From Blastocatellia bacterium (lineage in GTDB: Bacteria > Acidobacteriota > Blastocatellia > UBA7656): a DNA stretch of 64,000 nucleotides. Every line of letters begins with the position of its first letter. The first letter of the stretch is position 1. The stretch spans positions 23,695 to 87,694 of the forward strand of contig DASQDI010000068.1 in NCBI GenBank assembly GCA_035634255.1. Reading direction: 5' to 3'. Shown here one piece after another: positions 3,636 through 45,181 of the stretch. The translations under genes and the position numbers were made by a program. Below the pieces are notes generated by a model. That model ran no database searches. It was given only the letters and a program-made list of their open reading frames with translations, and was not told where the DNA came from.

Positions 3636-4517
3636 ATGCAAGAAAAGATGCTCGGGGGACTCTCAATCAAAGAGCTTGCCGCCAGGACATGGCGGGAGGC
3701 GAACGAGGACAACATATTCGGGCGGGCGGCGGAATTGGCCTATTACTTTCTGCTCGCGCTCTTCCCGATGCTGATCTTCCTGACCAGCCTGGTGGGCTTC
3801 CTGCCCGGCGCGCAGGAAGGAATCCTGGACGCGGTCGCCAAGGCCGCGCCCTCCGACGCCATGACGCTCGTGCGAGAGACGCTCAACGATGTCGTGAGCA
3901 ATCGCAGCGGCGGGCTGATCTCTTTCGGTATTCTGGGGACCATCTGGGCGGCTTCGAGCGGGACGGCCGCGGTGATGGAAGCCCTCAATGACGCTTACGA
4001 GGCCGAAGAGGGGCGCGGGTTCATAAAGGTTCGGCTATTAGCCATCGGCATGACGGTGGCGCTGGCTCTGCTCATCGTCGGCGGCACGGCCCTGATCATG
4101 TTCGGGGACCGGTTCGCGCACTGGATCGCCGTCGCCTCGGGGCTCGGCCCGACCTTCGAGACCGTCTGGCATTACGTCGATTACGTCCTCGGGCTGGCCC
4201 TCATATCCCTGGGCTTGCAGGTGATCTATTACTTCGGGCCGAACCTTAAGCAGGATTGGGAATGGGTAACCCCCGGCGCGATTGTCGCCGTGGTCGCTCT
4301 CATAATCGTCTCGTTACTCTTCTCGCTTTACCTGAGGTTCGCCCCGAGCTACAGCGCGACGTACGGGAGCCTGGGCGCGGTCATCATATTGATGCTCTAC
4401 CTTTACCTCATCGGGCTTGTCGTGCTCGTGGGGGCCGAGATCAACTCGGAGATAAGGAAGGCCAACCACATACCGACGGTCGAAAAAGAGCCGAGCAATG
4501 ATTTGAAAGCGGCCTGA
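3636..4517 (+). CDS. YihY/BrkB (virulence factor BrkB / former RNase BN) family membrane protein
   Basis: Six predicted TM helices. N-terminal signature AAELAYYFLLALFP. About 290 aa, typical of the family. Confidence 0.8.
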   Translation: MQEKMLGGLSIKELAARTWREANEDNIFGRAAELAYYFLLALFPMLIFLTSLVGFLPGAQEGILDAVAKAAPSDAMTLVRETLNDVVSNRSGGLISFGILGTIWAASSGTAAVMEALNDAYEAEEGRGFIKVRLLAIGMTVALALLIVGGTALIMFGDRFAHWIAVASGLGPTFETVWHYVDYVLGLALISLGLQVIYYFGPNLKQDWEWVTPGAIVAVVALIIVSLLFSLYLRFAPSYSATYGSLGAVIILMLYLYLIGLVVLVGAEINSEIRKANHIPTVEKEPSNDLKAA

Positions 4518-4616
4518 GCGGTCCGAGGGATTTGAAGACAAGCATTGAGCAGGCGGCCGTCGCCGCCCGGAGATTTCTGTTGGACGCGCACAAAAGCAAG
4601 GGGGTACTTAAATAAA

Positions 4617-6708: not shown

Positions 6709-7074
6709 CGCCTTCCTCTTGAGTATCAAAACTTACCCCGTGGTATGGGCGAGCTTAAAGGCTCCGCGTGCCGGATGTCAACCGCGGGCAGTCCGCTCGA
6801 ATGTGCGTAGAAATCGGCCCCATTATTGAAATCGACGGAGCCGCGTGTATCGTTCGATGCGCCCGCCGCTCTGATGAGACGGGCGCGGGACGGCGGCAGC
6901 CCGCCGAGTTGATTAGGGAGATTAATTCCGGAAGGGAGAATTTTATGAGAGAGCGATTCGTTGGATTGTTAGGATGTGGGCCATAGCCTCACGAAAGGGT
7001 GCCTTGTCTCGCGCCTCCCTTCCGCTTTTAATCAATGATTTGAATCGTGCCCGAGCAACCTGTAGAATTCAGAC

Positions 7075-8085
7075 GTGAACGAACCTTCTTACGTCAAGCT
7101 GCTTGAATCGGGAGAGCTGGCCGGGCGCGTCGACCTGCTGATGGGTATGCTCGCCAAGTGCCGGGTCTGCCCTCGCGATTGCGACATCGACCGCCTGAAG
7201 AACGAGGTGGCCGCGTGTTATTCGGGGCTGCTTCCCATAGTCTCCACGTACACCCCGCACTTCGGGGAAGAGCCGGCTCTGGTGGGGACCGGGGGGGCCG
7301 GCAATGTCTTTCTGGGCCTTTGCAACCTCCGATGCGTCTATTGCCAGAACTACCAGATCAGTCAGACCTTCAAGGAACAGCGCAAAAACGAAGTCTCGTT
7401 TGAGCGGCTGGCGGAGATGTACCTTGAGCTTCAGGGGAGGGGATGCCACAACGTCAACTGGGTCTCGCCCACGCACTTCGCTCCGCAACTCGCCAAATCC
7501 CTTTTGATCGCGGCGGAGCGCGGGTTACGCTTGCCCGTGGTTTATAACACCAACGCCTATGATTCGGTCGAAGTCCTCAAGCTGCTCGATGGCGTGGTCG
7601 ACATTTATCTGCCCGACCTCAAGTACAGCGAGGACGAGGCGGGTAGAGAGTACTCGAAGGTCACCGAGTATGTGCGCCATTCGCGCGCGAGCATCAAGGA
7701 GATGTACCGGCAGGTCGGAGACACGCTCGTTTACGGGGAAGATGGGCTGCTCAAGCGCGGGCTGATTATCCGCCTGCTCGTGCTGCCCAACGACATCGCG
7801 GGCGTCCGGGAATCACTTGCCTGGATACGTGAGGAGTTGTCCCCGAAGGTCGCCGTAAGCCTCATGGCGCAGTACTTCCCGACGAACAAGGTGGGCGCGG
7901 AGAGGTACCCGCTCATCTCTCGGAAGATAAGGTGGTCCGAATGGCTCACGGCCATCGAGCAGATGGAATCGCTCGGCCTCGAAGAAGGGTGGATGCAGGA
8001 TTTCGATTCCGCCTCCGAATACTACCGGCCCGACTTCGGCGACTCTAAGACCCCTTTCAAAGACATTGTCGATTTTCAATCTTGA
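7075..8085 (+). CDS. Radical SAM protein, PflX-like (COG1313; pyruvate formate-lyase-activating-enzyme homolog)
   Basis: GTG start. CxxxCxxC radical-SAM motif (CNLRCVYCQN) plus N-terminal CxxC, about 336 aa. Confidence 0.8.
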   Translation: MNEPSYVKLLESGELAGRVDLLMGMLAKCRVCPRDCDIDRLKNEVAACYSGLLPIVSTYTPHFGEEPALVGTGGAGNVFLGLCNLRCVYCQNYQISQTFKEQRKNEVSFERLAEMYLELQGRGCHNVNWVSPTHFAPQLAKSLLIAAERGLRLPVVYNTNAYDSVEVLKLLDGVVDIYLPDLKYSEDEAGREYSKVTEYVRHSRASIKEMYRQVGDTLVYGEDGLLKRGLIIRLLVLPNDIAGVRESLAWIREELSPKVAVSLMAQYFPTNKVGAERYPLISRKIRWSEWLTAIEQMESLGLEEGWMQDFDSASEYYRPDFGDSKTPFKDIVDFQS

Positions 8086-10640: not shown

Positions 10641-10821
10641 TCTAAGGAGTTGAAACTGAGAAAATTCGGAAGCGGATGAAATACGCCGCCACCCGCCTCC
10701 CTTCCTTACCCTTGAAAATATCAGGTCGAAACTATAACTCAGAAGCAGTAATGCGTCTAATTCATTGTTATAATCCACATCATTAGAAATGCTGATGTCA
10801 GGGCGGCGTAAGGGGGAGATT

Positions 10822-11742
10822 ATGGAGTTGACGCATCTCAGGACCTTCCGGGAAGTGGCTGACACGTTGAATTTCACGCGGGCGGCCGAGCGCCTGCACC
10901 TCACGCAGTCGGCGGTGAGCCATCAGATCAAGTCTCTGGAATCCGAGCTTGACGAGCCGCTGTTCATAAGGGCGAAGCGCGGCGTGAAGCTAACGCAGGC
11001 CGGTAAGATCGCCCTCGAATACGCGGAGCGCATACTCGGCGACGCGGAGGCGTTGCGCGAGAGGCTCTCCGGGCGCGAGCACTCCCCGGTCGGGCGCGTG
11101 CGCGCGGCCGCCGCGACTCAGGCTTTCGTGCACCTGTTCGCCCCCCTCTTCGAGTAGTTCATGCGCATGCACACGGGGATCGAGGTCTCGTTTCGCACGA
11201 CGGTCAGCACGGAGCAGACCGTCTCCGACATCCTGAACGGGAAGGCCGACCTCGGCTTCGCCTCCCTGCCCGTTTATTCGCCCGCCCTTCAGGTCACCGA
11301 GTTATTCGAAGATGAGATCGTGCTCGTGGTGGGCCATAAGCATCAGCTCGCCTCCCGGTCCGAGGCGAGCATCGCCGACATCGAGCGCGACAGGCTGATA
11401 CTGTTCGAGCGCGGGGCCTCGATCCGCCACGCGACGGATGATTTCTTCAAGCAGGTCGGCATACGCCCGGACCTCGCCCTCGAATCCAACGACACCTACT
11501 TCATAAAGCTTATGGTCGAGCATGGGATGGGGATTTCTCTGCTGCCCGTCTGGGCCGTCCGCGACGAGGTGAGGGCCGGCAAGCTCGCGCGGTTGAGGAT
11601 CGACGGGCACAGGCTCCGCAGGTCGGTAGCCATGGTCTCTCTCGGAAAATTTCAGCCCTCCCCCACGCGCGCCTTCCACGGTTTCATCATCGAGCACAGG
11701 GAGAGGTTGCAGGCGATGGCGAAGGGCGAGGACTCGCAGTAG
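10822..11742 (+). pseudogene. LysR-family transcriptional regulator interrupted by an in-frame TAG (11155-11157)
   Basis: Track ORFs 10789..11157 (HTH, MELTHLRTFREVADTLNFTRAAERLHLTQSAVSHQIKSLE) and 11161..11742 (LysR substrate-binding domain) are in the same frame. They are separated only by TAG; the junction ...LFAPLFE*FMRMHTGIEVSF reads as a continuous LysR linker. Confidence 0.6.
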
Positions 11743-27587: not shown

Positions 27588-30500
27588 GTGAGGAAAGCTG
27601 TGCGAAATACTCTCTCCGGTAGTAAGGCGGTTGTCTGCCTCGCGGTATCTTTTTTCGCCCTCATGGGCCTGCTCCCCTCCCGGCCCGGATCGACGGGCGC
27701 GCGAGTCGCGGCTTCGGCCGCGGGAGATTCAAGGGTCGGCCCCGGCCGCTCCGGGGAGGAGATCGAAGACCGGGTCAGGGATTCGTATGGGAAGCTGCCT
27801 CTCATGTTCGAGGCGAACGTCGGGCAGGCCGATTCGAAGGTGGACTTCCTCTCGCGGGGCGCGGGCTACAGCGTGTTCATAAGCTCGACCGAAGCCGTCT
27901 TCGCTATGTCGCACTCGTCTGCTTCCGACGACTCCGACGCCGGAAAGAAGGCCTCTCTGCTCCGCATGAGACTCGTGGGGGCGAGCCCGCACGCCCGGCC
28001 CGAGGGGCTTGAGCTGATGGAGGGCACGAGCAACTACTTCGTGGGCGGGGACGAAAAGAAGTGGCGCACGGCCATCCCCAACTATGGCAGAGTGCTCTAC
28101 AGGCAGGTCTACGCGGGAATAGACGTGTCTTATTACGGCAACCAGAGGGAGCTTGAATACGACTTCATAGTGGCTCCGGGAGCCAGTTCCAAGGCGATCA
28201 GGCTGGAATTCAAGGGGGCGCGGCGGATGCGCGTCGACGAGGCCGGCGACCTGCTGCTGGGCACGGCCGCGGGCGAGATGAGGCAGCGCAGGCCCGTCGC
28301 CTATCAGGAGGTTGACGGCGCGAGGCGGAGCGTCGAGGCGCGGTACGTGATCAGGGGCAGGAATAAGGTCAGCCTGAAGGTCGGCGCGTACGACGCGAGC
28401 AGGCCGCTCGTCATCGACCCGGTATTCAGCTATTCGACCTTCCTCGGCGGGGTCGCCGAAGAGACGGCCAGAGGCATCAGATTAGATTCGGACGGCAACG
28501 CCTACGTCACCGGGCGCACCCGGTCCGCCGGCTTTCCAAAGACTGTTGGCTCTTTCGACCCGACGTACAATGAAGGGGCCGACATATTCGTCACCAAATT
28601 AAATGCGGACGGCTCGGGCCTGATCTACTCGACTTTCATCGGCGGGGCGCGCGACGAGGAAGGGTTCGGCATCGCCCTCGACCCGTCGAACAACGCTTAC
28701 GTGACCGGGTTCACGAGGTCGAACGATTTCCCCACCACGCCGGGGGCGTTCCAGCCGCAGCCCTCTTTAAATGTCGACACTGAAGCCTTCGCGATCAAGT
28801 TGAACTCCGCGGGCTCGGCCCTTGTTTACTCAACCTATTTAGGGGGCGACGGGACCGATCAGGGGAACGGCATCGCCGTGGACGCGGAGGGCTTCGCTTA
28901 CGTGACGGGGGCGACCGCCTCCCTGAATTTCGACACGACTCCGGGCGCGTTTCAAAACACGATTGAGGGTAACGTGGCCTTCGGCGACGCCTTCATCACC
29001 CGGCTGAATCAAGGCGGCACGGGCCTCATGTATTCGACCTACCTCGGGGGCACGAATTTCGATACGGCCTTAGGCATTGACGTGGACGCGGCGGGCCTCG
29101 CTTACGTCGCCGGCACGACGCGCTCGGTGGACTTCGACACGACTCCGGGTGCGTTCCAGACCACATTCATCACCGACGGCGGGTTCAACTTCAGCGACGC
29201 TTTCGTAACGAAGGTGAACAGCAACGGCACGGGGCTGATCTATTCCACCTACGTCGGAGACATCGGCGAGGAGACGGCGCGAGGCATCCATGTCAACTCG
29301 GCGGGGGAAGCGTACGTGGTCGGGAACAGCGATTCGCAGAGGTTCCCCACGACTCCGGGAGCCCTGCGGGTGGCCAACAAAGGCGTGGTCGGGTCCGCGA
29401 ACGGGGGGGCCGGCTGGTCCTCTCTGAATGCTGAAATGCCTGACCTTTCAATCCAGACTACGTTCATTAACACCGTAGTCATCGACCCGTCCACGCCCTC
29501 GACGATCTACGCCGCCACGTCCGAAACGGGCGTCTTCAAGAGCACGAATGGCGGCGGAAGCTGGGCCGCGATGAACTCGGGCCTGCCGGAAGAGGATCTG
29601 AGGACCCTCTCCCTCGCCATAGACCCGTCCGCCCCGTCCACTCTATATGTCGGCACGCACTTCAGGGGCGTTTTTAAGACCACGGACGGCGGGGCATCCT
29701 GGCAGGAGATCAACAACGGTCAGACCGATCCGAGGATATTCGAAGTCGCGGTGGACCCGAGCACGCCTTCGACGATTTATAACGGGAGCGAATTCGGCGT
29801 CTTCAAGAGCACAGACGCAGGCGCGCACTGGGCGCGCATTAATTCGGGGCTCTCGATCAGCTTGAGCGTGTCGGTGTTCATAGACCCATCCAACCCCTCA
29901 ACCGTTTATGGCGGGGCGGGCTCCAACGGCATCATCAAGAGCACGGACGGCGGAGCCACGTGGCGGGAGACGGGGATACCTGATGACTTCCTCGACTCTA
30001 TGGCTATACATCCGGTGACGGGCACCCTGTTCGCGAGTAATGGCGCGGGGCTTATAAAAAGCACGGATGGCGCGGCCACGTGGAGCGCGGTCGACTCGGA
30101 CCTTACCCGCAGAACCATCAGCCACCTGGCGATCCAGCCGAGCGACCCTTCCATAATGTACGCGGGGACGATCAACGGGGTCATCAAATCGACCGACGGA
30201 GGGGATACGTGGAGCGAGGCAAATGCCGGGCTCATAGGGTCCTGGGTCAGGACCGTTTCCATCGACCCGGTCAATAGCTCGACGGTCTATGCGGGCTTGA
30301 ACGATGGCAACGTAGACGCATTCGCATTGAAGCTGAACGCGGGAGGCACGGCCCTGGTCTATTCAACGTTGCTCGGCGGCGCGGGCAATGAACAGGCTCA
30401 TGCCGTGGACGTGGACTCATCCGGAAACGCCTACGTCGCCGGCGCGGCATTTTCCAGTACATTTCCCGTCACCCGCGGGCTCAGCCCTTTTAGAGGCGGC

Positions 30501-32333
30501 TTCACCGACGCATTCGTATCGAAGCTGAACCCGTCGGCCTCGGCTCTGGTCTACTCGACGTGCGTCGGCGGCCCGAGGCAGGATACGGCTTTCGCCGTGG
30601 CCGTAGACTCCGCCGAAAGCTGCCACGTCGTGGGGACATCCTCTTCCCCGGAATTTCCTACGACCCCGGGAGCATTCCAGCCCGTGATAGCCGGCACCCC
30701 GCCCGGAGGTTCCGCCGACGCCTTCATATCAAAGCTTCAGCCCGAGCCCGTGCTGCGAACCGACCTCAGCGTCACGATGACCGGGCCGGCAGAGAGCATC
30801 GCGGGCCACGGAGTGGTTCACACCATCAAGGTGACCAACGACGGCGACGAAGATGCGGTATCCATCGTGGTCTCGACCGACATGCCCCCATCCCTGATAT
30901 TGAGTTCGTGTGAAGGCGATTCGTGCACAGAGGTGCTAAACGATGTCAGGTTCGACATACCGTTCCTCGCCCCCGGCCAGAGCGCAGACTTCTCCTTCAC
31001 CTCCTCCATAGCGTGTAACGTCCAGTTCCCGGCGACTATCACCTCGACGGCCAGGGTCAGCTCTCTGTCCATCGACCCGAACGCGGCGAATGATTCCGCC
31101 TCGTTCACTTTTACGGCCACGACTCCCCCAGGCTTTATCGACCCGTCCGAATTCACCATCCCATCGGAAGGCGGCTCGTCGGGCTTCGTCGTCATCAATG
31201 GGTCAGGCTGCGCCTGGAATGCCGTGAGCAACGTCGATTGGATCACCATAATCGATGGCACCGGTTGCTGCGACAGCGGCGGCGTCTCTTACAGAGTGGA
31301 CCTCAACCCCGGCCCCCCTCGCGTCGGCACGATCAGCGTCGTGGGGCGGACCTTCACCGTCCATCAGGAGGCCGGATTCAGCGCGGGGGGCTTTATAGGC
31401 GTCCCGGTCAACATCGGAATCCTCGGGATTCCGGGCGTGACTGTGACTTTTACCAGAGTTAGCGGCACGGGGGCCCTCCCCGCGCCCGTCACCACCAACG
31501 CCTTCGGCAACTGGTCCCAGACCGGTTTCGAATTCGGCACCACCTATCGCGCCACCCCGGCGAAACGCCGCTTCACCTTCGCCCCGACTTCCACGGACTT
31601 CAGCGCGAGGGAGATGGGGATCGACTTCACCGGATCGAAGAACGCCGATACGGCCGGCGTGTTCCGCCCGTCGGACGGGTCCCTCTTCCTCAAAAACACG
31701 AACGGCACCGGCTTCGCGGATACCTTCCTCACCTATGGCATCCCCGGCGACTATCCCGTGACCGGAGACTGGGACGGCGACGGCATAGATACAATCGGCG
31801 TGTACCGTGGCGGCACCTTCTTCCTGAGGAACTCCAACACCAATGGCTTCGCCGATGTGGTCGCCGCCTTCGGCCTGCCCGGAGACCAGCCGGTGGTGGG
31901 CGACTGGGATGGTGACGGCATAGACACAATCGGGGTCTTCCGCGAGGGAGTATTTCTGCTCCGCAACTCTAACACGACGGGCGACCCGGAGACCGTCTTC
32001 GTACTCGGGAACCCCGGAGACGTGGGCATAGCGGGAGACTGGGACGGCGACGACATCGTGACGACGGGCGTATTCCGCCCCTCTAACGGAGCCTTGTTCT
32101 TGAAGAACACGAACTCAACTGGATTCGCTGACATCGTGTTGACGTACGGGCTGCCGGGAGACAAGCCCGTGGTCGGAGACTGGAACCGAGATGGGAGGGA
32201 CACGATAGGCGTCTACCGTCAGGGCACGTTCTTCCTGAGGAATTCGAATACCAACGGCTTTGCGGACATCGTGTTTACTCTCGGTGTTCCCGAGGACCAC
32301 CCGATAGCGGGCGACTGGAACGGGCTGCCCTGA
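27588..32333 (+). CDS. Giant secreted multi-repeat protein (1581 aa): SBBP beta-propeller repeats, BNR-like repeats, DUF11, Ig/BACON-like domain, C-terminal FG-GAP-like tandem repeats
   Basis: Signal peptide. Repeated YSTxLGG...GxxIAVDxxGNAYVTGxTxSxDFPTTPGAFQ units (SBBP), and about 10 xSTDGGxxW BNR-like units. A DUF11-like segment (DLSVTMTGP...VTNDGDEDA). Five C-terminal ~45-aa GDWDGDGxDTIGVFR repeats. GTG start at 27588, or more likely the GTG at 27600 after a GAGGA SD. Confidence 0.8.
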   Translation: MRKAVRNTLSGSKAVVCLAVSFFALMGLLPSRPGSTGARVAASAAGDSRVGPGRSGEEIEDRVRDSYGKLPLMFEANVGQADSKVDFLSRGAGYSVFISSTEAVFAMSHSSASDDSDAGKKASLLRMRLVGASPHARPEGLELMEGTSNYFVGGDEKKWRTAIPNYGRVLYRQVYAGIDVSYYGNQRELEYDFIVAPGASSKAIRLEFKGARRMRVDEAGDLLLGTAAGEMRQRRPVAYQEVDGARRSVEARYVIRGRNKVSLKVGAYDASRPLVIDPVFSYSTFLGGVAEETARGIRLDSDGNAYVTGRTRSAGFPKTVGSFDPTYNEGADIFVTKLNADGSGLIYSTFIGGARDEEGFGIALDPSNNAYVTGFTRSNDFPTTPGAFQPQPSLNVDTEAFAIKLNSAGSALVYSTYLGGDGTDQGNGIAVDAEGFAYVTGATASLNFDTTPGAFQNTIEGNVAFGDAFITRLNQGGTGLMYSTYLGGTNFDTALGIDVDAAGLAYVAGTTRSVDFDTTPGAFQTTFITDGGFNFSDAFVTKVNSNGTGLIYSTYVGDIGEETARGIHVNSAGEAYVVGNSDSQRFPTTPGALRVANKGVVGSANGGAGWSSLNAEMPDLSIQTTFINTVVIDPSTPSTIYAATSETGVFKSTNGGGSWAAMNSGLPEEDLRTLSLAIDPSAPSTLYVGTHFRGVFKTTDGGASWQEINNGQTDPRIFEVAVDPSTPSTIYNGSEFGVFKSTDAGAHWARINSGLSISLSVSVFIDPSNPSTVYGGAGSNGIIKSTDGGATWRETGIPDDFLDSMAIHPVTGTLFASNGAGLIKSTDGAATWSAVDSDLTRRTISHLAIQPSDPSIMYAGTINGVIKSTDGGDTWSEANAGLIGSWVRTVSIDPVNSSTVYAGLNDGNVDAFALKLNAGGTALVYSTLLGGAGNEQAHAVDVDSSGNAYVAGAAFSSTFPVTRGLSPFRGGFTDAFVSKLNPSASALVYSTCVGGPRQDTAFAVAVDSAESCHVVGTSSSPEFPTTPGAFQPVIAGTPPGGSADAFISKLQPEPVLRTDLSVTMTGPAESIAGHGVVHTIKVTNDGDEDAVSIVVSTDMPPSLILSSCEGDSCTEVLNDVRFDIPFLAPGQSADFSFTSSIACNVQFPATITSTARVSSLSIDPNAANDSASFTFTATTPPGFIDPSEFTIPSEGGSSGFVVINGSGCAWNAVSNVDWITIIDGTGCCDSGGVSYRVDLNPGPPRVGTISVVGRTFTVHQEAGFSAGGFIGVPVNIGILGIPGVTVTFTRVSGTGALPAPVTTNAFGNWSQTGFEFGTTYRATPAKRRFTFAPTSTDFSAREMGIDFTGSKNADTAGVFRPSDGSLFLKNTNGTGFADTFLTYGIPGDYPVTGDWDGDGIDTIGVYRGGTFFLRNSNTNGFADVVAAFGLPGDQPVVGDWDGDGIDTIGVFREGVFLLRNSNTTGDPETVFVLGNPGDVGIAGDWDGDDIVTTGVFRPSNGALFLKNTNSTGFADIVLTYGLPGDKPVVGDWNRDGRDTIGVYRQGTFFLRNSNTNGFADIVFTLGVPEDHPIAGDWNGLP
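31656..32330 (+). repeat. Intragenic tandem repeat (5 x ~135 bp) encoding FG-GAP-like units
   Basis: DNA-level tandem periodicity visible (…ggagactgggacggcgacggcatagatacaatcggcgtgtaccg…, recurring about every 135 bp). Confidence 0.7.
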
Positions 32334-37722: not shown

Positions 37723-39075
37723 TTGACCGCCCCGGAGAAATCCCACATCGGTTTCATTATGTTCATCCCACGCGGCAAGGCCATACATGAAAATCTTGCG
37801 ACGAGCTTCGTGCTGCTCGAGGCCCTCGTCGAGGACCTGTGCGAAGGCGGCTTTTCGGGGGCGGTCGAGATAACCCTGCGCGATACCGACGGCCACGTGA
37901 TAATAGACCGGGGGAAGCTGGCGGCCGCCATCGAAAGGCGGGAAGGCGGCGGCTACTCGCGAACGTCCGTGGCCGAGCTCGCGGCCATGTCGCGCCGCGA
38001 GCGGGGCCGCGTGTCGGTCTACGGGTTCTCGGAAGGCGTCGCCTCCGCCATCGCGAGTCGCTTCCTCGCGCAGCCCCTCTACACCAACCTGAGCACCGAT
38101 TTCGCCGACCTCGAAAAGATGCTTATGAAGCTCAGCCGCGAGCGGGACCGCCAGTGGTTCGTCGAAATCACCGTCGCCGGCGGCAAGGTCACGTTGATTC
38201 ACCTGATGGATGATCGTTGCCGGATCGTGACGGAAGAGGCGGAATCGCCGGGCTCCGACCGCGACGGCCTGGACCCGTCTGAGAACAGGGCGCTCGGAGA
38301 CCTGCTCTCCGAAGTCAACCGTCAGGGCGGTATGTTCGATGTCTACTTCGCGCGACTGGACGCGGCGGCTGACTCCGCGGAGACGCTCGGGCCGGAAGAA
38401 AAACTTCCCGAGCTGCGGGCCGACGAGCCGGAGCCTTCGACCACTCAACACGCTGCGCCTGCCATGCCCGTCACGGAAGACCCGCCCCGAGCCCCGTTTG
38501 ACGAGGACGCTCACACTCCTTTTCAAACGCCCGAGCCCGCTTCGACCGCGGGCGAGCCGGATAAACCGGATGAAATAGAACTGGGCGCGGACGCGAGCGA
38601 GAGCGCGCCCGACCCGACCCCCCCCGCGAGTGCGGGGCGGGCCGCCTCCCTGCCGCGCTCCGGCGCTCTGAAAGACGCGGAAGCGATGGTTGAGATCAAG
38701 CGGCTGATGGGAGAGATCGCCCGCACCATCGAGGTCTCCACGCAGGCAATCGAGCAGCGCGACAGCTTCTCGATGTACCTCCGCACGGGGCAATTGAAGA
38801 TCGCGGACCGCTACCCGTTCCTCGACCCGTTCGGGGCGGAGTTCGAATACCTCGGGGGCGAGATCGCCTTCGTCGGGCGGGCGAAACCCGAGGAGTTTAT
38901 CGCGGGGCTCACGGAAGCTCTCAGGCTCGCCGTGGTCGGCGTGGCCGAATCGAGCCTCCAGACTTCGCGGCTCCGGGCGCGAATCGCGGAAGACCTGCGC
39001 GGCCTCCTGGATCGCAACCGGGCCGAGCTGGAACGCTACGGCCTTGATGGCTCCATACAGGAGATTGTTGGGTAG
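37723..39075 (+). CDS. Hypothetical protein with DUF4388-like N-terminal domain(s) and a Pro/Glu-rich linker
   Basis: LATSFVLLEALVEDLCEGGFSGAVEITLRDTDGHVIIDRGKLAAA resembles the DUF4388 pattern. TTG start at 37723, or ATG at 37759. Stop TAG 39073-75 directly abuts repeat A. Confidence 0.5.
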   Translation: MTAPEKSHIGFIMFIPRGKAIHENLATSFVLLEALVEDLCEGGFSGAVEITLRDTDGHVIIDRGKLAAAIERREGGGYSRTSVAELAAMSRRERGRVSVYGFSEGVASAIASRFLAQPLYTNLSTDFADLEKMLMKLSRERDRQWFVEITVAGGKVTLIHLMDDRCRIVTEEAESPGSDRDGLDPSENRALGDLLSEVNRQGGMFDVYFARLDAAADSAETLGPEEKLPELRADEPEPSTTQHAAPAMPVTEDPPRAPFDEDAHTPFQTPEPASTAGEPDKPDEIELGADASESAPDPTPPASAGRAASLPRSGALKDAEAMVEIKRLMGEIARTIEVSTQAIEQRDSFSMYLRTGQLKIADRYPFLDPFGAEFEYLGGEIAFVGRAKPEEFIAGLTEALRLAVVGVAESSLQTSRLRARIAEDLRGLLDRNRAELERYGLDGSIQEIVG

Positions 39076-39232
39076 GGGCCGGTGGTCAGTAGTCGGGGGC
39101 CAGAGCGGGGGACGGCGGCCCTCAGTCCCGTTAATGATTCGAGACTCTCTTTATTGAATCCCTTTCGATTTAATCAAAATCCTCGGGAGCATCACCGGCT
39201 CCTGACCCCCGACCACTGACCACTGCCACCGC
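39076..39232. repeat. GC-armed hairpin repeat element, copy A (MITE/REP-like)
   Basis: Long inverted arms (GGTGGTCAGTAGTCGGGGG / CCCCCGACCACTGACCAC) flank a lower-GC core (…gattcgagactctctttattgaatccctttcgatttaatcaaaatcctcggga…). The core is shared with copies B and C. Confidence 0.7.
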
Positions 39233-40150
39233 TTCCGCGAAGGCTTCGGGCTCATTCCCGAATCTGTTGATCCACGTCACGCCGGGCCAGGCCCGCCACC
39301 AACTCAACTGGCGCTTGGCGTAGTGCCGCGTATCCAGCTTCATCTGATTGAGCGCGTCTTCGCGCGTGCGCACGCCGCGAAGGTGCTCGACGACGCGGCG
39401 GTAGCCGTGGGCCTGAAACGCCTTCGCATTCCACGGGACCCCCGACCCGATGAGCGACTCGACCTCCTCGACCAGCCCGGCTTCAAACATATGATCGGCC
39501 CGCTCGTTTATGCGGGCGTAGAGCAGGTTTCGCGGAGGGTTGAGGGCGATCACCCGGATTCGCGGGGCGAAGTCGGGCGGCTCGGGCGTGACGGGCTGCG
39601 CCTCCGACAACCGCTCGCCCGTTTGAAAATAGACTTCGACCGCGCGCATGGTGCGCGACCAGTCGCGCGGGCTCAGGCGCGAGGCCGACTGCGGGTCCAC
39701 GCGTCGAAGCAGGTCGTGCAGGTGGGTCGCGCCGCGCCGGTCGCGCAGCCGGATTAAACGGTCCCGAAGGCGCGGGTCGGTCTTCGGGCCTTCGAAAAGA
39801 GGCTGCACTATCGCCCTCAAGTAAAAGCCCGTGCCGCCCGCGAGCAGGGGGACGCGCCCGCGAGATTCGATCTCGCGGATGAGCTCCGTGGCCTCGCGCG
39901 CGTAATCGCCCGCGGTGAAATTCTCGACCGGCTCGACTATGTCGATCAGGTGGTGGGGGATCCCCTGCCGCTCCGCGGGGGGGACTTTCGCCGTGGCGAT
40001 CTGAATCCCGCGGTAGACCTGGACCGAGTCGAGATTGATGATCTCGCCGCCGAGGGCGCGCGCCAATTTTATGGCGAGCTCGCTCTTGCCGGAAGCCGTC
40101 GGGCCTACGATCACCGGTATTGGTCCGGGTCTTTTTTGATCTTCCATCAA
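39170..40150 (-). CDS. miaA: tRNA dimethylallyltransferase
   Basis: P-loop GPTASGKS and the DSVQVYRGIQIATAKV motif. The last ~17 codons (VVSGRGSGAGDAPEDFD*) are encoded by the right arm of repeat A. Confidence 0.9.
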   Translation of the reverse strand: MMEDQKRPGPIPVIVGPTASGKSELAIKLARALGGEIINLDSVQVYRGIQIATAKVPPAERQGIPHHLIDIVEPVENFTAGDYAREATELIREIESRGRVPLLAGGTGFYLRAIVQPLFEGPKTDPRLRDRLIRLRDRRGATHLHDLLRRVDPQSASRLSPRDWSRTMRAVEVYFQTGERLSEAQPVTPEPPDFAPRIRVIALNPPRNLLYARINERADHMFEAGLVEEVESLIGSGVPWNAKAFQAHGYRRVVEHLRGVRTREDALNQMKLDTRHYAKRQLSWWRAWPGVTWINRFGNEPEAFAEAVAVVSGRGSGAGDAPEDFD

Positions 40151-41088
40151 TCAGAGATTGCGTCGCCCGTCGAGAGGCGCGCCCCGTTGAGAAAGTCGCG
40201 CGCCGGTGTCCTCCGCTTCCCTTCGATCTGCAACTCCTCGATCAGGAGCGCGGAGCCTCCCGCGCAGGCGACCGTAAAGCCGGACTTGCCGGTCGCGGTT
40301 ATCGTCGCGGGCGCGGCCGAGGCGGGGAGGGCTTCGTCTTCGCGCGCGCGCCAGATGATAAGCCTCCCGCCGCGAAAGGTCGTGAAAGTTCCGGGCCACG
40401 GCTGGAAGGCCCGCACGCGGTTGACTATCTCTCGCGCGGGCATCCGCCAGTCTATCAACCCATCCTCACGTTTCAGGATGGGGGCATAGGTGGCGCGGGC
40501 GTCGTCCTGCGCTTCGGGGACCACCCCGCCGTCCGCGATGACCGGCAGCGTCTCCGACAGCAGGTCGGCCCCGACCCCCGCGAGTCTCGACAGGAGTTCG
40601 GGCGCGGTCTCTTCGGGGCCGATGGCGACGGAGCGCTTTGCGAACATCGGCCCGGTGTCGAGGCCCGCCTCCATCTGCATTATGGTGACGCCCGTCTCGC
40701 TCTCGCCGCGCGCGATGGCCCAGTTCACGGGGGCCGCGCCCCTGTACTTCGGCAGGAGAGATGCGTGGACGTTGATGCAGCCGAGCCTCGGGATCGCGAG
40801 CATCCACTCGGGCAGTATCTTCCCGTAAGCGGCGACGACGCAGGCGTCGGGCGCGACCTCGGCGAAGACGGCGCGCACCTCTTCGTTCGTTTTGATCCTG
40901 GCCGGCTGGTGGACCGCGAGGTTGTGTTCGAGCGCGAATGTCTTGACGGGGGGCGGCTGCAACTTATTGCCCCGGCCCGCGGGCTTGTCGGGCTGGGTGA
41001 ATACGGCCTCGACTTGGTGCCCCCCTTCGACGAGCCGCGCGAGCGACGGCACTGCGAATTCCGGGGTGCCCATGAAGATCAGTCTCAT
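40147..41088 (-). CDS. fmt: Methionyl-tRNA formyltransferase
   Basis: MRLIFMGTPEFAV...HASLLPKYRGAAPV is the Fmt signature. Its stop overlaps the miaA start. Confidence 0.9.
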   Translation of the reverse strand: MRLIFMGTPEFAVPSLARLVEGGHQVEAVFTQPDKPAGRGNKLQPPPVKTFALEHNLAVHQPARIKTNEEVRAVFAEVAPDACVVAAYGKILPEWMLAIPRLGCINVHASLLPKYRGAAPVNWAIARGESETGVTIMQMEAGLDTGPMFAKRSVAIGPEETAPELLSRLAGVGADLLSETLPVIADGGVVPEAQDDARATYAPILKREDGLIDWRMPAREIVNRVRAFQPWPGTFTTFRGGRLIIWRAREDEALPASAAPATITATGKSGFTVACAGGSALLIEELQIEGKRRTPARDFLNGARLSTGDAISD

Positions 41089-41110
41089 ACTCTATGTCAT
41101 ACCAGATAAA

Positions 41111-41262
41111 GGGGGCAGGGGCCAGTGGCCGGGGGTCAGGAGTCAGGGGCTAAAGGAGGAGCATTCCAGATCCTATTTACGGAATTCCGTTCGAGTAAAT
41201 CGAAATCTCGGGTGGCGTCCCCGGCTCCCGACTCCTGACCACTGGCCCCTGATCCTTGATCC
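41111..41262. repeat. GC-armed hairpin repeat element, copy B
   Basis: Arms CAGGGGCCAGTGGCCGGGGGTCAGGAGTCAGGGG / CCCGACTCCTGACCACTGGCCCCTG. Core cattccagatcctatttacggaattccgttcgagtaaatcgaaatctcggg. Lies between the divergent fmt (-) and dapA-like (+) starts. Confidence 0.7.
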
Positions 41263-41333
41263 CTCTATAATCTCAATTTACTGTCTTGGCTGAAACCATG
41301 CGGTGGGGCAAGGCGTAAAGTAGAGCGACGCAT

Positions 41334-42239
41334 ATGAAAAACATTCACCTGAACGGAATACTGCCGCCGCTGACCACGCCGTTCGATGACCGCGGAGACC
41401 TCGATTCAGAAGGGCTATCGGAGAACGTCTCGCGGTACAACGAGGCGGGGCTGGCGGGGTACGTGGCCCTCGGCTCGAACGGGGAGGCCGTACACCTTTC
41501 GGCGGACGAGCGGATGAAAGTCGTGGAGACGATCAGGCGCGCGGCCGCCCCTAATATGACTCTGGTGGTTGGAATCAACGAGAGCTCCGCCCGCGCGGCC
41601 ATCGAGGCGTCGAAGGCGGCGGCGGGCCTCGGCGCGGACGCGCTTCTGGTCATCACTCCGTATTTTTACAAATCTTTGATGACTCAGGAGACTCTGCTGA
41701 GATACTTTACCGAGGTTGCCGATAGTGTGCCCGTGCCTGTGTTGGTCTACAACGTGCCGCAGAATACGGGCGTCGTCATCGACCCCGCGACGATAGCGGC
41801 GCTGGGCGAGCACGAGCGGATCATCGGAGTGAAGGACAGCGCGGGCAATATGGGGGCCATCTCCAACACCATTCGTCTCACCCCTTCCGGGTTCGCCGTG
41901 ATGACAGGGAACGGGGGCATCCTTTACCCCTCGCTTATGATGGGAGCGACCGGGGCTATCCTGGCCGTCGCGTGCGCCGCGCCGCGCGCCTGCGTGGACC
42001 TGTATGACGCGACCCGCTCGGGCGACCACGCGAGGGCGCGCGAGCTTCAGAATCGTCTCGCGCCTCTATCGCACATAGTGACGGCGGGGCTGGGCGTCCC
42101 CGGGTTGAAGGCGGCCCTTGAGATGGCGGGGCTCGTCGGCGGGGCCCCCCGCTCTCCGCTAACTCCACTGGCCCCCGAGGGCAGGGAGAAGGTCAGGGCC
42201 ATAATGCGACAGACGGGGCTGTTCCCCGGTATGGAATGA
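41334..42239 (+). CDS. Dihydrodipicolinate synthase / N-acetylneuraminate lyase family (DapA-like) lyase
   Basis: Class I aldolase DHDPS-family motifs (GSNGE..., GVKDSAGN with Schiff-base Lys). Confidence 0.75.
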   Translation: MKNIHLNGILPPLTTPFDDRGDLDSEGLSENVSRYNEAGLAGYVALGSNGEAVHLSADERMKVVETIRRAAAPNMTLVVGINESSARAAIEASKAAAGLGADALLVITPYFYKSLMTQETLLRYFTEVADSVPVPVLVYNVPQNTGVVIDPATIAALGEHERIIGVKDSAGNMGAISNTIRLTPSGFAVMTGNGGILYPSLMMGATGAILAVACAAPRACVDLYDATRSGDHARARELQNRLAPLSHIVTAGLGVPGLKAALEMAGLVGGAPRSPLTPLAPEGREKVRAIMRQTGLFPGME

Positions 42240-42260
42240 CGTAGGTCGATTGGAATTCTA

Positions 42261-43970
42261 ATGAACGATCCCGAATGTAAAGACCTGGAAGCCGCAGCCG
42301 ACAGGCTCGCGGACGCCCTGCGATTCACGAGCATACCGCGCACGAGTCGCCTCTTTAATGACTTCCTTTACGACTATGAAAAGGTCGCGCGTTTTTACGC
42401 GAGCTGCGGGCGGTCCGTCTCGCCCCTGGCCGAGCACGCGCGCAAGGTGGGCGCGCAGGAGTTCGACCGCGCGCGCGTGCCCGACGCGCTTGAGCGGATA
42501 AACCGCCGCGCCGGCTCGTCCGAGCTCACCTTCAGGCACATAGAGATGCTCCGCCATCCGGGGTCGGTCGCCATCGTCACGGGCCAGCAGGCGGGGTTGT
42601 TCACCGGCCCGCTCTACACGATTCACAAGGCCCTGACCGTGATCAAGCTGGCCTCGTGTTTACGCGGGCAGGGGGTGGAAGCGGTGCCGGTGTTCTGGGT
42701 CGCGAGCGAAGACCACGACTACGAAGAGGTGAATCACGTCCGACTCGTCGATCAGGAAGGCAGGCTGAAAGAGATTCGTTACGAGCCGTCTGACCGTCCG
42801 CCCGACGTTCCGGTGGGCCGCGTACTCCTGACCGACAACATCTCCGAGGCCATCGACGAGTTCGTCTCGCAGCTCCCGCCGTCGGAGTTCATGCCCGAGA
42901 TCGAGCGGGACCTGCGGGAAGCCTACGCTCCGGGCACGGGGTTCGCGGACGCCTTCGCCAAATTGATGGCCCGCATGTTCAGGGACTACGGGGTGGTGCT
43001 GATCGACCCTCTCGATGAGGGGCTCAAGCAGGTGGCCGCGCCGCTCTACTCGCGCGCCATCGAGAAGTCGGGCGAGATCGCGCGCGCCCTGGTCGGGCGG
43101 AGCCGCGAGCTCGAAGAGGCGGGCTATCACGCGCAGGTCAAGGTGTCGGAAGACATGGTCCCGCTCTTCATCCTGGACGAAGGGCGGCGCGTGGCCCTGG
43201 TCGAGCACGAGGGCCGCTTCTGGGTGAAGGGGTCGAACCGCTCGTTCGACAGCCAGGAACTCGCGGACCTGGCGCGGCGCTGCCCGAACTGCTTCAGCCC
43301 GAACGTGACTATGAGGCCGGTCGTGCAGGACTACCTGCTGCCCGTCGCCTCATACGTCGGGGGGCCGGCCGAGGTCGCCTACTTCGCGCAACTGCGCGCG
43401 GTCTACGAGACGCTTGAGAGGCAGGAGCCGTGCGTGCTGCCGCGCGCGAGCTTCACCATAATCGAGGGGCGGCATCAGAAGACTTTGCAGAAGTACAACC
43501 TTAAGGTCGAAGACTTCTTCGAGGGCCTCCACCCCGCGATAACTAAGGTGGTCGAGGAGAGCCTCGACCGCGGCACCTCGCAAACTTTCGACGAGACGGA
43601 GCGCGTCTTCAACGAGCAGCTCGACAGGCTCGATGAGTCGCTGCGCCAGGCCGACTCCACGCTCGCCGACTCCGTGAAGCGCGCGAAGGAGAAAGTGCTT
43701 TACCAGATAGAGCACCTCCGCACGCGCTTCGTGCACGCGAGCGCGCGGCGCGAAGAGGCCGCCTTCCGGCAGGTCGAGCGGGCCTACACGACCCTCTTCC
43801 CTAACAAGAACCTTCAGGAGCGCGAGCTTAACGCTTACTACCTCCTCTCGCGCTACGGCCATAACCTGATCGAGGAGCTTTACGAGGCGGCCGACATCGG
43901 CTACTCGAACCACCGCCTGCTCTACGCGGGCGGCGTAGCCTCGCAGGTGGTGAATCAGGACCGCCGCTAG
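42261..43970 (+). CDS. bshC: Bacillithiol biosynthesis cysteine-adding enzyme BshC (YllA family)
   Basis: VTGQQAGLFTGPLYTIHKAL is the BshC signature. About 570 aa. The final codons and stop are embedded in the left arm of repeat C. Confidence 0.8.
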   Translation: MNDPECKDLEAAADRLADALRFTSIPRTSRLFNDFLYDYEKVARFYASCGRSVSPLAEHARKVGAQEFDRARVPDALERINRRAGSSELTFRHIEMLRHPGSVAIVTGQQAGLFTGPLYTIHKALTVIKLASCLRGQGVEAVPVFWVASEDHDYEEVNHVRLVDQEGRLKEIRYEPSDRPPDVPVGRVLLTDNISEAIDEFVSQLPPSEFMPEIERDLREAYAPGTGFADAFAKLMARMFRDYGVVLIDPLDEGLKQVAAPLYSRAIEKSGEIARALVGRSRELEEAGYHAQVKVSEDMVPLFILDEGRRVALVEHEGRFWVKGSNRSFDSQELADLARRCPNCFSPNVTMRPVVQDYLLPVASYVGGPAEVAYFAQLRAVYETLERQEPCVLPRASFTIIEGRHQKTLQKYNLKVEDFFEGLHPAITKVVEESLDRGTSQTFDETERVFNEQLDRLDESLRQADSTLADSVKRAKEKVLYQIEHLRTRFVHASARREEAAFRQVERAYTTLFPNKNLQERELNAYYLLSRYGHNLIEELYEAADIGYSNHRLLYAGGVASQVVNQDRR

Positions 43971-44092
43971 GCGGAAGGAAGGGGCATTTCAGATTCCCTT
44001 TATGGGATCCGTTTCGAGTAAATCGAAATCTCGGGTTCCACCACTGGTCCCTGGCTCCTGACTCCTGGCCGCTGAGGCCGGCCACTGATGCC
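43940..44092. repeat. GC-armed hairpin repeat element, copy C (left arm overlaps the bshC 3' end)
   Basis: Core catttcagattccctttatgggatccgtttcgagtaaatcgaaatctcggg is nearly identical to copy B. Right arm ccactggtccctggctcctgactcctggcc; the left-arm homolog lies within the bshC terminal codons. Confidence 0.6.
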
Positions 44093-44128
44093 TTGCCCTC
44101 TCCGTCCCGCGAAGATAAACTTTGCGAC

Positions 44129-45181
44129 ATGGGGACTACCGAAAGCAGACTGCCTTACTTCAAGCAGGTAAATACGCTCGCGCCGGTTGTTTCCAACCCG
44201 CCTGTCTGCCTTTATCTGGAGACGACGAATCGTTGCAATCTGCTTTGCCAGCATTGCCCGCGAACCTTCGCGTCGGTCGAGCGGCCCGCCGACCTCTCTT
44301 TCGAAAAGATGAAGATGATCGTCGAGCAGGTCCCGAACCTGAAGCAGGCCGTGCTGCACGGGATCGGGGAGCCTCTGATAAATAAAGAATTGCCGCAGAT
44401 CATCCGCTACCTCAAGGACCGCGGAGTCTACGTCCTCTTCAACTCCAACGGCACGATGCTCTACCCCCACATCCAGAAGGAGCTGATCGAGAGCGGCCTC
44501 GACGAGTACCGCGTGTCGCTCGACGCCGCCGACGCCGAGACGTTCGCGAAAGTGCGGGGGCTCCCGCGCTTCAATCTCATCGTCAAGAACGTGCGCGAAT
44601 TCGTCGCGCTCAAGAAAGAGCGGGGCGTCGAAAACCCGAAGCTCTCGCTCTGGCTCGTCGGTATGAAGGAGACGCTCGAAGAGTTGAACGCCTTCGTCCG
44701 GCTCGCGCGCGACATGGGCGTGGGGGAAGTCTACCTCCAGCGGCTCGTCTTCTTCGAGGATGGGCAGCACGGTCAGGGCCTCGCCCGCTCGGACCAGGCG
44801 TTGTTCGGCGCGGTGAGCGACGAGGAGGCCGGGCTCATCGCCGGGGCGCACGCCCTGGCCGACGAGATAGGGGTCGCTTTCCACGCGTCGGGGGCGGCCT
44901 CGCCCGAGCAGAGCTTGATGCCGCGCGACTCGGGGCAGCCGTGGAGCCTGTGCCGGCGGCCGTGGACTCTTATGTACATCACGGCGAACGGCAACGTCCT
45001 GCCCTGCTGCATCTCCCCATTCGCCGAGCGCGATTACGACTCGCTCATCTTGGGCAACGTCTTCGAGCGGCCCCTGATGGACATCTGGAACGATCACCTT
45101 TATCGGAAATTCAGGGACGACCTGCAAAGCGATCACCCTCCGAGCGCATGCAGGAACTGCGGCGTGCGATGGAGCCTGTGA
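44129..45181 (+). CDS. Radical SAM / SPASM-domain protein (orphan maturase-like)
   Basis: CxxxCxxC ([14 protein letters not shown]) and a Cys-rich C-terminal SPASM-like region (CRRPW...LPCCISPF...CRNCG). ATG at 44129; the track ORF starts at 44093. Confidence 0.75.

Follow-up and report, generated by a model that had tools for sequence, protein, structure and literature searches.

An inverted heptamer repeat between the divergent fmt and DHDPS-family genes of a Blastocatellia bacterium: probable filler between conserved candidate promoters

In a 64,000-nucleotide stretch of DNA from a Blastocatellia bacterium (the window), fmt and a DHDPS-family gene diverge from a short gap, and that gap is filled by the strongest local inverted repeat of the window. 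The original prediction, which called the DHDPS-family gene dapA-like and the repeat copy B, proposed that the element may act as a portable promoter or terminator for the units on either side. We asked whether copy B supplies the promoters of these genes or lies between promoters that do not depend on it.

Anatomy of copy B

We found that the arms and core of copy B cover essentially all of the fmt-DHDPS gap, as had been claimed. The spacings given for its two sides, about 22 and 70 bp, agree with the 21 nt that we counted between the fmt ATG and the first heptamer (41110) and the 68 nt from the end of the right arm (41265) to the DHDPS ATG. The AT-rich words described in the core are present too (TATTTAC at 41174-41180 and GTAAAT at 41195-41200). 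The label copy B is justified, since an nhmmer profile of the core and right arm found exactly three diverged copies in the window, at 41148-41254 (E 1e-32), 43971-44077 (E 6e-32), and 39137-39226 (E 6e-25), and 0 in the other 59 kb. The implied likeness of the copies holds for the shared core and right arm but not for the whole element, because copy C lacks the left arm and with it the long hairpin (fold z = -1.25). Table 1 gives the coordinates.

The arms are tandem heptamer arrays, with the G-rich unit CAGGGGY on the left and the complementary unit on the right, and they surround an AT-rich core of about 65 nt. Divided into heptamers, the copy B left arm is AGGGGGC AGGGGCC AGTGGCC GGGGGTC AGGAGTC AGGGGCT, and the right arm, as its reverse complement, is GAGGGAT CAAGGAT CAGGGGC CAGTGGT CAGGAGT CGGGAGC CGGGGAC. 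TRF reported period-7 arrays in all three copies (41110-41150, 5.9 copies; 39202-39229, 4.1 copies; 44050-44069, 2.9 copies), and the arm word GGTCAGGAGTCAGGGG occurs 9 times with up to 3 mismatches, against 0.76 expected. The arms of copy B are 76% complementary over 45 nt (41106-41150 with 41224-41268) and 82% over the inner 33 nt (41116-41148 with 41219-41251), with 70 to 73 nt between them. The left arm also contains, as a sequence motif only, four G-tracts of the quadruplex type (G3+) at 41111-41149.

The predicted single-strand fold of copy B has an energy of -87.1 kcal/mol (z = -5.3), and 0 of 200 shuffles were as stable; the opposite strand folds at -82.2 kcal/mol (z = -5.2). Arms folded singly gave z values of +0.33, -0.01, +0.65, and +0.22, and the cores of copies B and A folded alone had no significant structure (z = -0.67 and +0.26). 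Because neither the arms nor these cores fold alone, the structural signal is arm-to-arm pairing. Copies A and B have 20 stem pairs in common, none of them broken and 3 with compensatory double changes. All six mismatches in the inner arms of copy B are of the transition type, 3 G.T and 3 A.C, and are thus symmetric between strands. This symmetry is consistent with an originally perfect DNA palindrome that point mutations have eroded. Strand-specific RNA selection, for which we compared G.U with A.C mismatches, was rejected because the counts are equal.

A second sample of the same population (L002; Logan SRR9290673) differs from the window by 14 single-nucleotide polymorphisms in 11.9 kb, with 0 indels and an unchanged number of heptamers. 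Copy B itself has a single difference, a T/G site in its left arm (41136) whose G allele disrupts a T-A stem pair.

Table 1. Features of the fmt-DHDPS gap and its surroundings (window coordinates)
Feature	Positions	Strand	Description
copy A	~39076-39232	+	both arms and core; 17 extra nt in core; fold z = -4.1
miaA	39170-40150	minus	IPPT domain; follows fmt
fmt	40147-41088	minus	ORF; Pfam Formyl_trans_N 1.2e-41, Formyl_trans_C 3.8e-29
fmt start codon (ATG)	41086-41088	minus	N terminus MRLIFMGTPEF kept in relatives
fmt-DHDPS gap	41089-41333	divergent	exact interval from fmt start codon to DHDPS-family ATG
candidate fmt -10, TATGAC	41096-41101	minus	7 nt before ATG; outside copy B
copy B	41106-41268		imperfect inverted repeat of ~160 nt filling the gap
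copy B left arm	41110-41150	+	about six G-rich heptamers; TRF period 7, 5.9 copies
fmt -35 position, TGGCCC	41119-41124	minus	within left-arm heptamers
window excess over L008	41131-41241		111 nt; inner heptamers of both arms and core
copy B core	41151-41215	+	AT-rich; palindrome ACGGAATTCCGT and small hairpin TTCGA-GTAAA-TCGAA; common to copies A and C
24-nt block TTCGAGTAAATCGAAATCTCGGGT	41190-41213 (B), 44013-44036 (C)	+	blastn 24/24 between B and C
copy B right arm	41216-41265	+	about seven C-rich heptamers
DHDPS -35 position, CTGGCC/TGGCCC	41242-41248	+	within outer right-arm heptamers
candidate DHDPS-family/bshC -10, TATAAT	41266-41271	+	invariant in nine genomes, L010 included
DHDPS-family leader	41272-41333	+	CTCAATTTA ... 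CTGAAACC ... GGCGTAAAG ... ATG; from the alignment and L011-L015
DHDPS-family gene	41334-42239	+	Pfam; followed by bshC
bshC	42261-43970	+	downstream of DHDPS-family gene
copy C	~43971-44091	+	core and right arm; between bshC stop (43970) and radical-SAM/SPASM promoter
candidate leaderless radical-SAM promoter	44093-44131	+	TTGCCC (44093-44098), 17 nt, TAAACT (44116-44121), 7 nt, ATG (44129)

Candidate promoters and site B in related genomes

Protein searches with Fmt and the DHDPS-family sequence placed the window in an uncultured, Blastocatellia-like soil acidobacterium. We compared site B with the corresponding loci of nine Blastocatellia-like genomes (L003 and L008 to L015), counting L002 apart as a member of the window population. 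Identity to the window is 83% in L008, 81% in L003 and L009, and 72% in L010 for Fmt, and 93% in L011 and L012, 92% in L013, 87% in L014, and 83% in L015 for the DHDPS-family protein. The core of copy B was absent from all nine loci in nhmmer searches, even where the DHDPS-family proteins are 92 to 93% identical.

In contrast to the core, the candidate -10 boxes are kept. In five genomes (the window, L008, L009, L014, and L015), TATGAC precedes the fmt ATG by 7 nt, and the variants TATATT in L003 and TATGAA in L010 both lie 6 nt from the ATG. As a putative -10, a box so placed implies a leaderless or near-leaderless fmt mRNA. Other TAnAAT boxes in the window lie 6 to 14 nt from start codons (for example, 7063 to 7075 and 10769 to 10789), making such mRNAs plausible here; this pattern suggests that leaderless or short-leader mRNAs may be common in this organism. 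Eight relatives conserve the leader of about 60 nt that belongs to the DHDPS-family gene (CTCAATTT…CTGAAACC…small hairpin…GGCGTAAAG). Rfam gave no match for this leader, which could be an uncharacterized cis-regulatory one.

Upstream of the -10 boxes, both candidate promoters have TGGCCC in the -35 position at 17-nt spacing, within the symmetric sequence CACTGGCCCCTG, and as a -35 this hexamer is a weak match (3/6 to TTGACA). At the -35 position of the DHDPS-family gene, genomes with heptamers have CTGGCC/TGGCCC and heptamer-free genomes have TTGCGC/TTGCGT; at that of fmt, the hexamer is TGGCCC, TGGCCT, or TGGCAC with heptamers versus TTGAAA without. Thus, the original prediction that any promoter here must lie within the element or be shaped by it stands for the -35 positions, both of which fall in the outer heptamers, but not for the -10 boxes, which are not in the core. 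Its suggestion that the AT-rich words of the core act as -10 elements found no support, since the candidate boxes TATAAT and TATGAC flank the core and are retained in genomes that lack it. A role as terminator fared no better. A consensus scan of 38900-44300 found no promoter-like or terminator-like site in copies A, B, or C, and no T-run follows any of their arms, as the U-tract of an intrinsic terminator would require. Inspection of the core by eye, together with the scan, found nothing convincing as an IHF site or sigma-70 hexamer.

We found that 3 to 5 GCCnCTG-type units abut TATAAT in six genomes (the window, L003, L008, L011, L013, and L015), in varying number. On this comparison, the heptamers of the outer right arm (41242-41265) form an ancestral tract next to the promoter, so that causation runs opposite to what a portable promoter would predict. 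Between the conserved core block and the -10 box there are 52 nt at copy B and 79 nt at copy C, and no gene lies downstream of copy A. Thus, the core does not have the fixed geometry that an upstream promoter module would need.

The sequence between the two -10 boxes varies widely, measuring 53 nt in L008, 54 in L015, 123 in L009, 142 in L014, 164 in the window, about 180 in L003, and 339 in L010. These inter-box sequences are mutually unrelated: L003, L009, L014, L010, L011, and L013 carry filler, and L015 has almost none. Site B of L008 consists of a 3+3-heptamer mini-hairpin alone, versus about 6+7 units in the window, and L008 aligns to window positions 41089-41130 (83%) and 41242-41280 (85%) with nothing between. 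The difference could reflect either an insertion in the window lineage or loss of the center in L008. In L011/L012 and in L013, fmt is not the neighbor of the DHDPS-family gene; a co-directional gene for a 269-aa protein lies upstream of it in L012, and an AT-rich unrelated stretch does so in L013. The breakpoint just upstream of the heptamer tract in these genomes points to a rearrangement hotspot. Separately, positions 1 to ~35 of the L008 contig (JGI 3300028831, Ga0309995_10213297) are an Illumina adapter, AGATCGGAAGAGCGTCGTGTAGGGAAAGAGTGT, fused within the DHDPS-family gene, a case of contamination in a public metagenome contig.

Copies A and C and known repeat classes

The three copies lie in the same orientation within 5 kb, and their pairwise identity over the shared unit of core and right arm is 69 to 77%. 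Copy A occupies a convergent gap between the 3' end of miaA and a gene for a 450-aa protein of unknown identity, whose stop is at 39075. The frame of miaA (minus strand, 39170-39232) crosses the copy A right arm and reaches its stop within the core, at 39170. Because the frame runs into the repeat, the last ~20 residues of MiaA (ending in …AVAVVSGRGSGAGDAPEDFD before the stop) are element-encoded. This site is empty in L003 and L009, so arms and core are present or absent there as one. The L002 assembly ends exactly at the first base of the copy A core (window position 39136); this break may be repeat-induced, by more copies elsewhere, or reflect a polymorphism or a drop in coverage in the G-rich arm.

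Copy C adjoins the candidate radical-SAM promoter, around which the sequence CCTTGC.CTCTC.GTCC.GCG.AA.ATAAACTTTGCG.CATGG is kept in L003. Site C of L003 has G-rich and C-rich heptamers around a different center, and L003 BshC is 8 residues longer than that of the window (L003 positions ~4496-4530) because its frame continues into the G-rich array. An "alternative core" common to sites B and C of L003 was considered and rejected, as we found no significant similarity between the two. A 378-aa open reading frame at 44000-45136 (minus strand) seems to enter copy C, but it has no Pfam match, is antisense to the radical-SAM gene, and is spurious; we note it as an annotation trap. The 24-nt block that is identical in copies B and C is diverged in copy A (about 19/24). 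In copies that are otherwise about 75% alike, this identity hints at recent gene conversion or constraint.

Beyond these loci, the matches of a degenerate core pattern with 20 specified bases to GTDB representatives, JGI metagenomes, and IMG/VR were all due to chance; five loci that it retrieved (L001 and L004 to L007) were rejected for the wrong GC content and for having no arms. Plasmid and phage collections had no blastn match to the element. Among 5.8 billion proteins, a profile built from the in-frame translations of the three copies and meant to catch spurious open reading frames over other copies found nothing, and Rfam at permissive E values gave one 21-bit chance match to a miRNA hairpin model with a gathering score of 99. 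No record reaching past the ends of the window was found with its terminal genes or the 313-aa Fmt. We found no credible open reading frame in the element and no transposase, RAYT, or integrase among the 43 open reading frames of the window. Two other frames of the window are worth recording. A TAG at 11155-11157 divides a LysR-type regulator into two adjacent frames, HTH_1 (10789-11157) and LysR_substrate (11161-11742), and 10789-11742 is thus either a pseudogene or a sequencing or assembly error. Positions 27588-32333 encode a 1,581-aa protein with DUF7948, SBBP beta-propeller, sortilin/BNR, and DUF11 domains and internal DNA repeat families of 92 to 263 nt, probably a large surface protein.

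The closest known kind of repeat is the inverted G-rich heptamer pairs of Xanthomonas and Nostoc. The heptamers GGGAATC in Xanthomonas and GGGGA(C/T)T in Nostoc (STRR type) are mostly intergenic, lie near gene ends, and vary in unit number between close relatives, and the arrays have at least four G-tracts, as a G-quadruplex would need (Rehm et al. 2015, PMC4692102). In Xanthomonas, 70 to 75 loci have one array per strand, convergent and capable of forming a stem-loop or cruciform (PMC4692102). Reporter work in Nostoc suggested that promoter-adjacent heptamer arrays can modulate the access of regulators (bioRxiv 10.1101/2022.06.06.494920). As in those pairs, the arms described here are head-to-tail G-rich heptamers by both TRF and register, opposite-strand arrays are paired in copies A and B, and unit number at site B differs between relatives while staying constant within the population (L002). 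In contrast, copy C has the right array alone, the unit is CAGGGGY/GGGGYCA, the phylum is Acidobacteriota, and a repeated AT-rich core of about 65 nt, absent from that description, lies between the arrays. The copies are apparently the first record of inverted G-rich heptamer arrays in Acidobacteriota, and this element would add a repeated core to the known class of heptamer simple sequence repeats (SSRs).

Palindromic intergenic repeats of the MITE type that influence adjacent genes, such as the Correia elements of Neisseria and the enterobacterial ERIC/IRU sequences, are non-coding, 100 to 170 nt long, and built of long imperfect terminal inverted repeats (TIRs) round a distinct center. Correia and ERIC/IRU elements occupy gaps of every gene orientation, vary in presence among relatives, and in some cases enter the ends of neighboring reading frames. 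Copy B resembles MITEs in its dimensions (arms of 33 to 45 nt, 76 to 83% complementary, about 160 nt overall; 50 to 500 nt for the class). The copies also share with Correia- and ERIC-type repeats presence/absence variation, occurrence in all gap orientations, and reading-frame read-through, here into the MiaA tail. The copies seen are three and clustered. Unlike MITEs, they have no target-site duplication and no cognate transposase in the window, their arms are SSR units rather than a unique TIR, and at site B the outer part of the right arm is host sequence of ancestral origin. The search for a duplication at A and B, against the L003, L009, and L008 sites, is a weak negative, as the heptamers blur the borders. 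Unlike Correia-type elements, moreover, the element itself contributes no promoter hexamers.

REP units are self-palindromes of 20 to 40 bp (stem of 5 to 13 bp) with an unpaired GTAG/CGTC tag at one end, mobilized by an associated RAYT (Y1 transposase), in families from phyla that, as reported, do not include Acidobacteria (Di Nocera et al. 2013, PMC3733652). Two inverted units with a spacer of 20 to 100 nt, sometimes conserved, make a REPIN, which can form one large stem-loop (PMC3733652; Bertels & Rainey 2011, PMC3116915). Copies A and B are likewise intergenic, with inverted units, a conserved spacer, and a predicted large stem-loop for the whole. We nevertheless rejected this reading, since the arms are not self-palindromic (z of about 0), the GTAG/CGTC tag is inconsistent (copy A begins after GGGTAG, and copy B has neither GTAG nor CGTC at either end), and the window encodes no RAYT.

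Explanations for the repeat and their implications

Because the -10 boxes lie at or outside the edges of the element and are kept in relatives without the core, we favor the view that copy B is probably variable filler between conserved back-to-back promoters, as the local form of a lineage-specific, non-coding, two-layer repeat. A Correia-like portable promoter module, whose own or junction-made outward -35/-10 elements would drive fmt-miaA and the DHDPS/bshC unit, is improbable. It would account for an element that fills the gap, for the same hexamer at both -35 positions in the outer heptamers, and for copies B and C lying directly upstream of a plus-strand promoter in the same orientation. 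It would not account for the placement of the -10 boxes beyond the core and their conservation in nine genomes without it, for an outer right arm older than the element, or for a consensus scan with no promoter-like site in any copy. Relatives without heptamers, moreover, have better -35 hexamers (TTGAAA and TTGCGC), copy A, in its convergent gap, has no gene to drive, and the spacing from core to -10 is unequal (52 versus 79 nt), all of which speaks against a promoter carried by the element. We regard as equally improbable a shared operator in which the ACGGAATTCCGT palindrome and the TTCGAGTAAATCGAAATCTCGGG block bind a regulator or nucleoid protein for the miaA-fmt, DHDPS-bshC, and radical-SAM units. 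The confinement of all copies to one 5-kb gene cluster, the block identical between B and C, and the short palindromes of the core are what such an operator would predict. Yet a regulon site is expected to be conserved, and no relative has the core despite keeping the genes and promoter boxes; copy A is flanked by two gene 3' ends, distances to promoters are not fixed, and the palindrome is lost in A (TTGAATCCC) and altered in C (GGGATCC).

Roles as terminator, 3'-end stabilizer, or RNase III target have been proposed for REP, ERIC, and Correia repeats. An RNA-level hairpin of this kind, acting mainly at A (convergent 3' ends) and C (intercistronic), is unlikely here. The long stems of A and B are very stable on either strand, A and C lie downstream of plus-strand genes, and compensatory changes maintain pairing. 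Against this, no U-tract follows the arms, the terminator scan was negative at all three copies, copy C without a left arm has no long stem, and the mismatches show no G.U strand bias. Copy B, being upstream of both -10 boxes, is probably not transcribed, which also counts against an RNA hairpin. A small RNA or micro-ORF in the core is scarcely credible. Its plus-strand frame, I-x-D-S/P-L/I-Y, is kept in three copies and follows a Shine-Dalgarno-like AAGGAGG in B and C (41153-41159 in B), and 7 of the 14 core differences fall at third codon positions, but this excess is not significant. B and C have no canonical start (ATT), A differs in stop and length, and 0 of 5.8 billion proteins share words with the translation; nor is there an Rfam match, a promoter or terminator, or a core in any relative.

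In the variable-filler model, the first layer consists of the inverted arrays of the G-rich heptamer SSR, which pair into an imperfect stem of 35 to 45 bp, and the second is the AT-rich core of about 55 to 70 nt between them. The right-hand array beside the DHDPS -10 is old, found next to the promoter in most relatives, with a unit number that drifts in a slippage-like manner. The core and inner heptamers (41131-41241, 111 nt) would sit inside an L008-type 3+3 mini-hairpin, moving the promoters from about 53 to 164 nt apart and leaving the -10 boxes untouched. The core with its C-rich array recurs at two further gaps within 5 kb. The most likely modes of spread are transposition of a non-autonomous, MITE-like kind and exchange between heptamer arrays through recombination or template switching; with the three copies so close together, a purely local segmental micro-duplication may also account for them. 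In place of the TTGAAA/TTGCGC of heptamer-free relatives, the outer heptamers would provide a weak TGGCCC -35, and the palindrome could extrude as a cruciform, or form a G-quadruplex (G4), between the divergent genes. The effect of copy B on expression is probably small. The core itself is likely to be dispensable filler without a conserved promoter box, although the 24-nt identity between B and C counts against dispensability and is left unexplained by neutral decay.

It is also conceivable, but a long shot, that the core and C-rich heptamers are an undescribed tiny mobile element that homes into promoter-adjacent heptamer-SSR hairpins. Entry could be into the loop of a pre-existing mini-palindrome, as L008 compared with the window suggests, or by array recombination. 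If this were true, compact back-to-back promoters would be split by a cruciform/G4 insulator responsive to the supercoiling of divergent transcription.

On the variable-filler reading that we prefer, copy B is a caution: a regulatory-looking palindrome fills a divergent promoter region, and nine relatives show that the boxes are older than it and independent of the core. The gap between the two promoters appears to be freely replaced across relatives, and the -35/spacer region of a conserved promoter incorporates one of the heptamer arrays. Should slippage of the heptamers alter promoter strength or spacing, this locus would be a simple natural system for SSR-tuned promoters in a poorly studied phylum.
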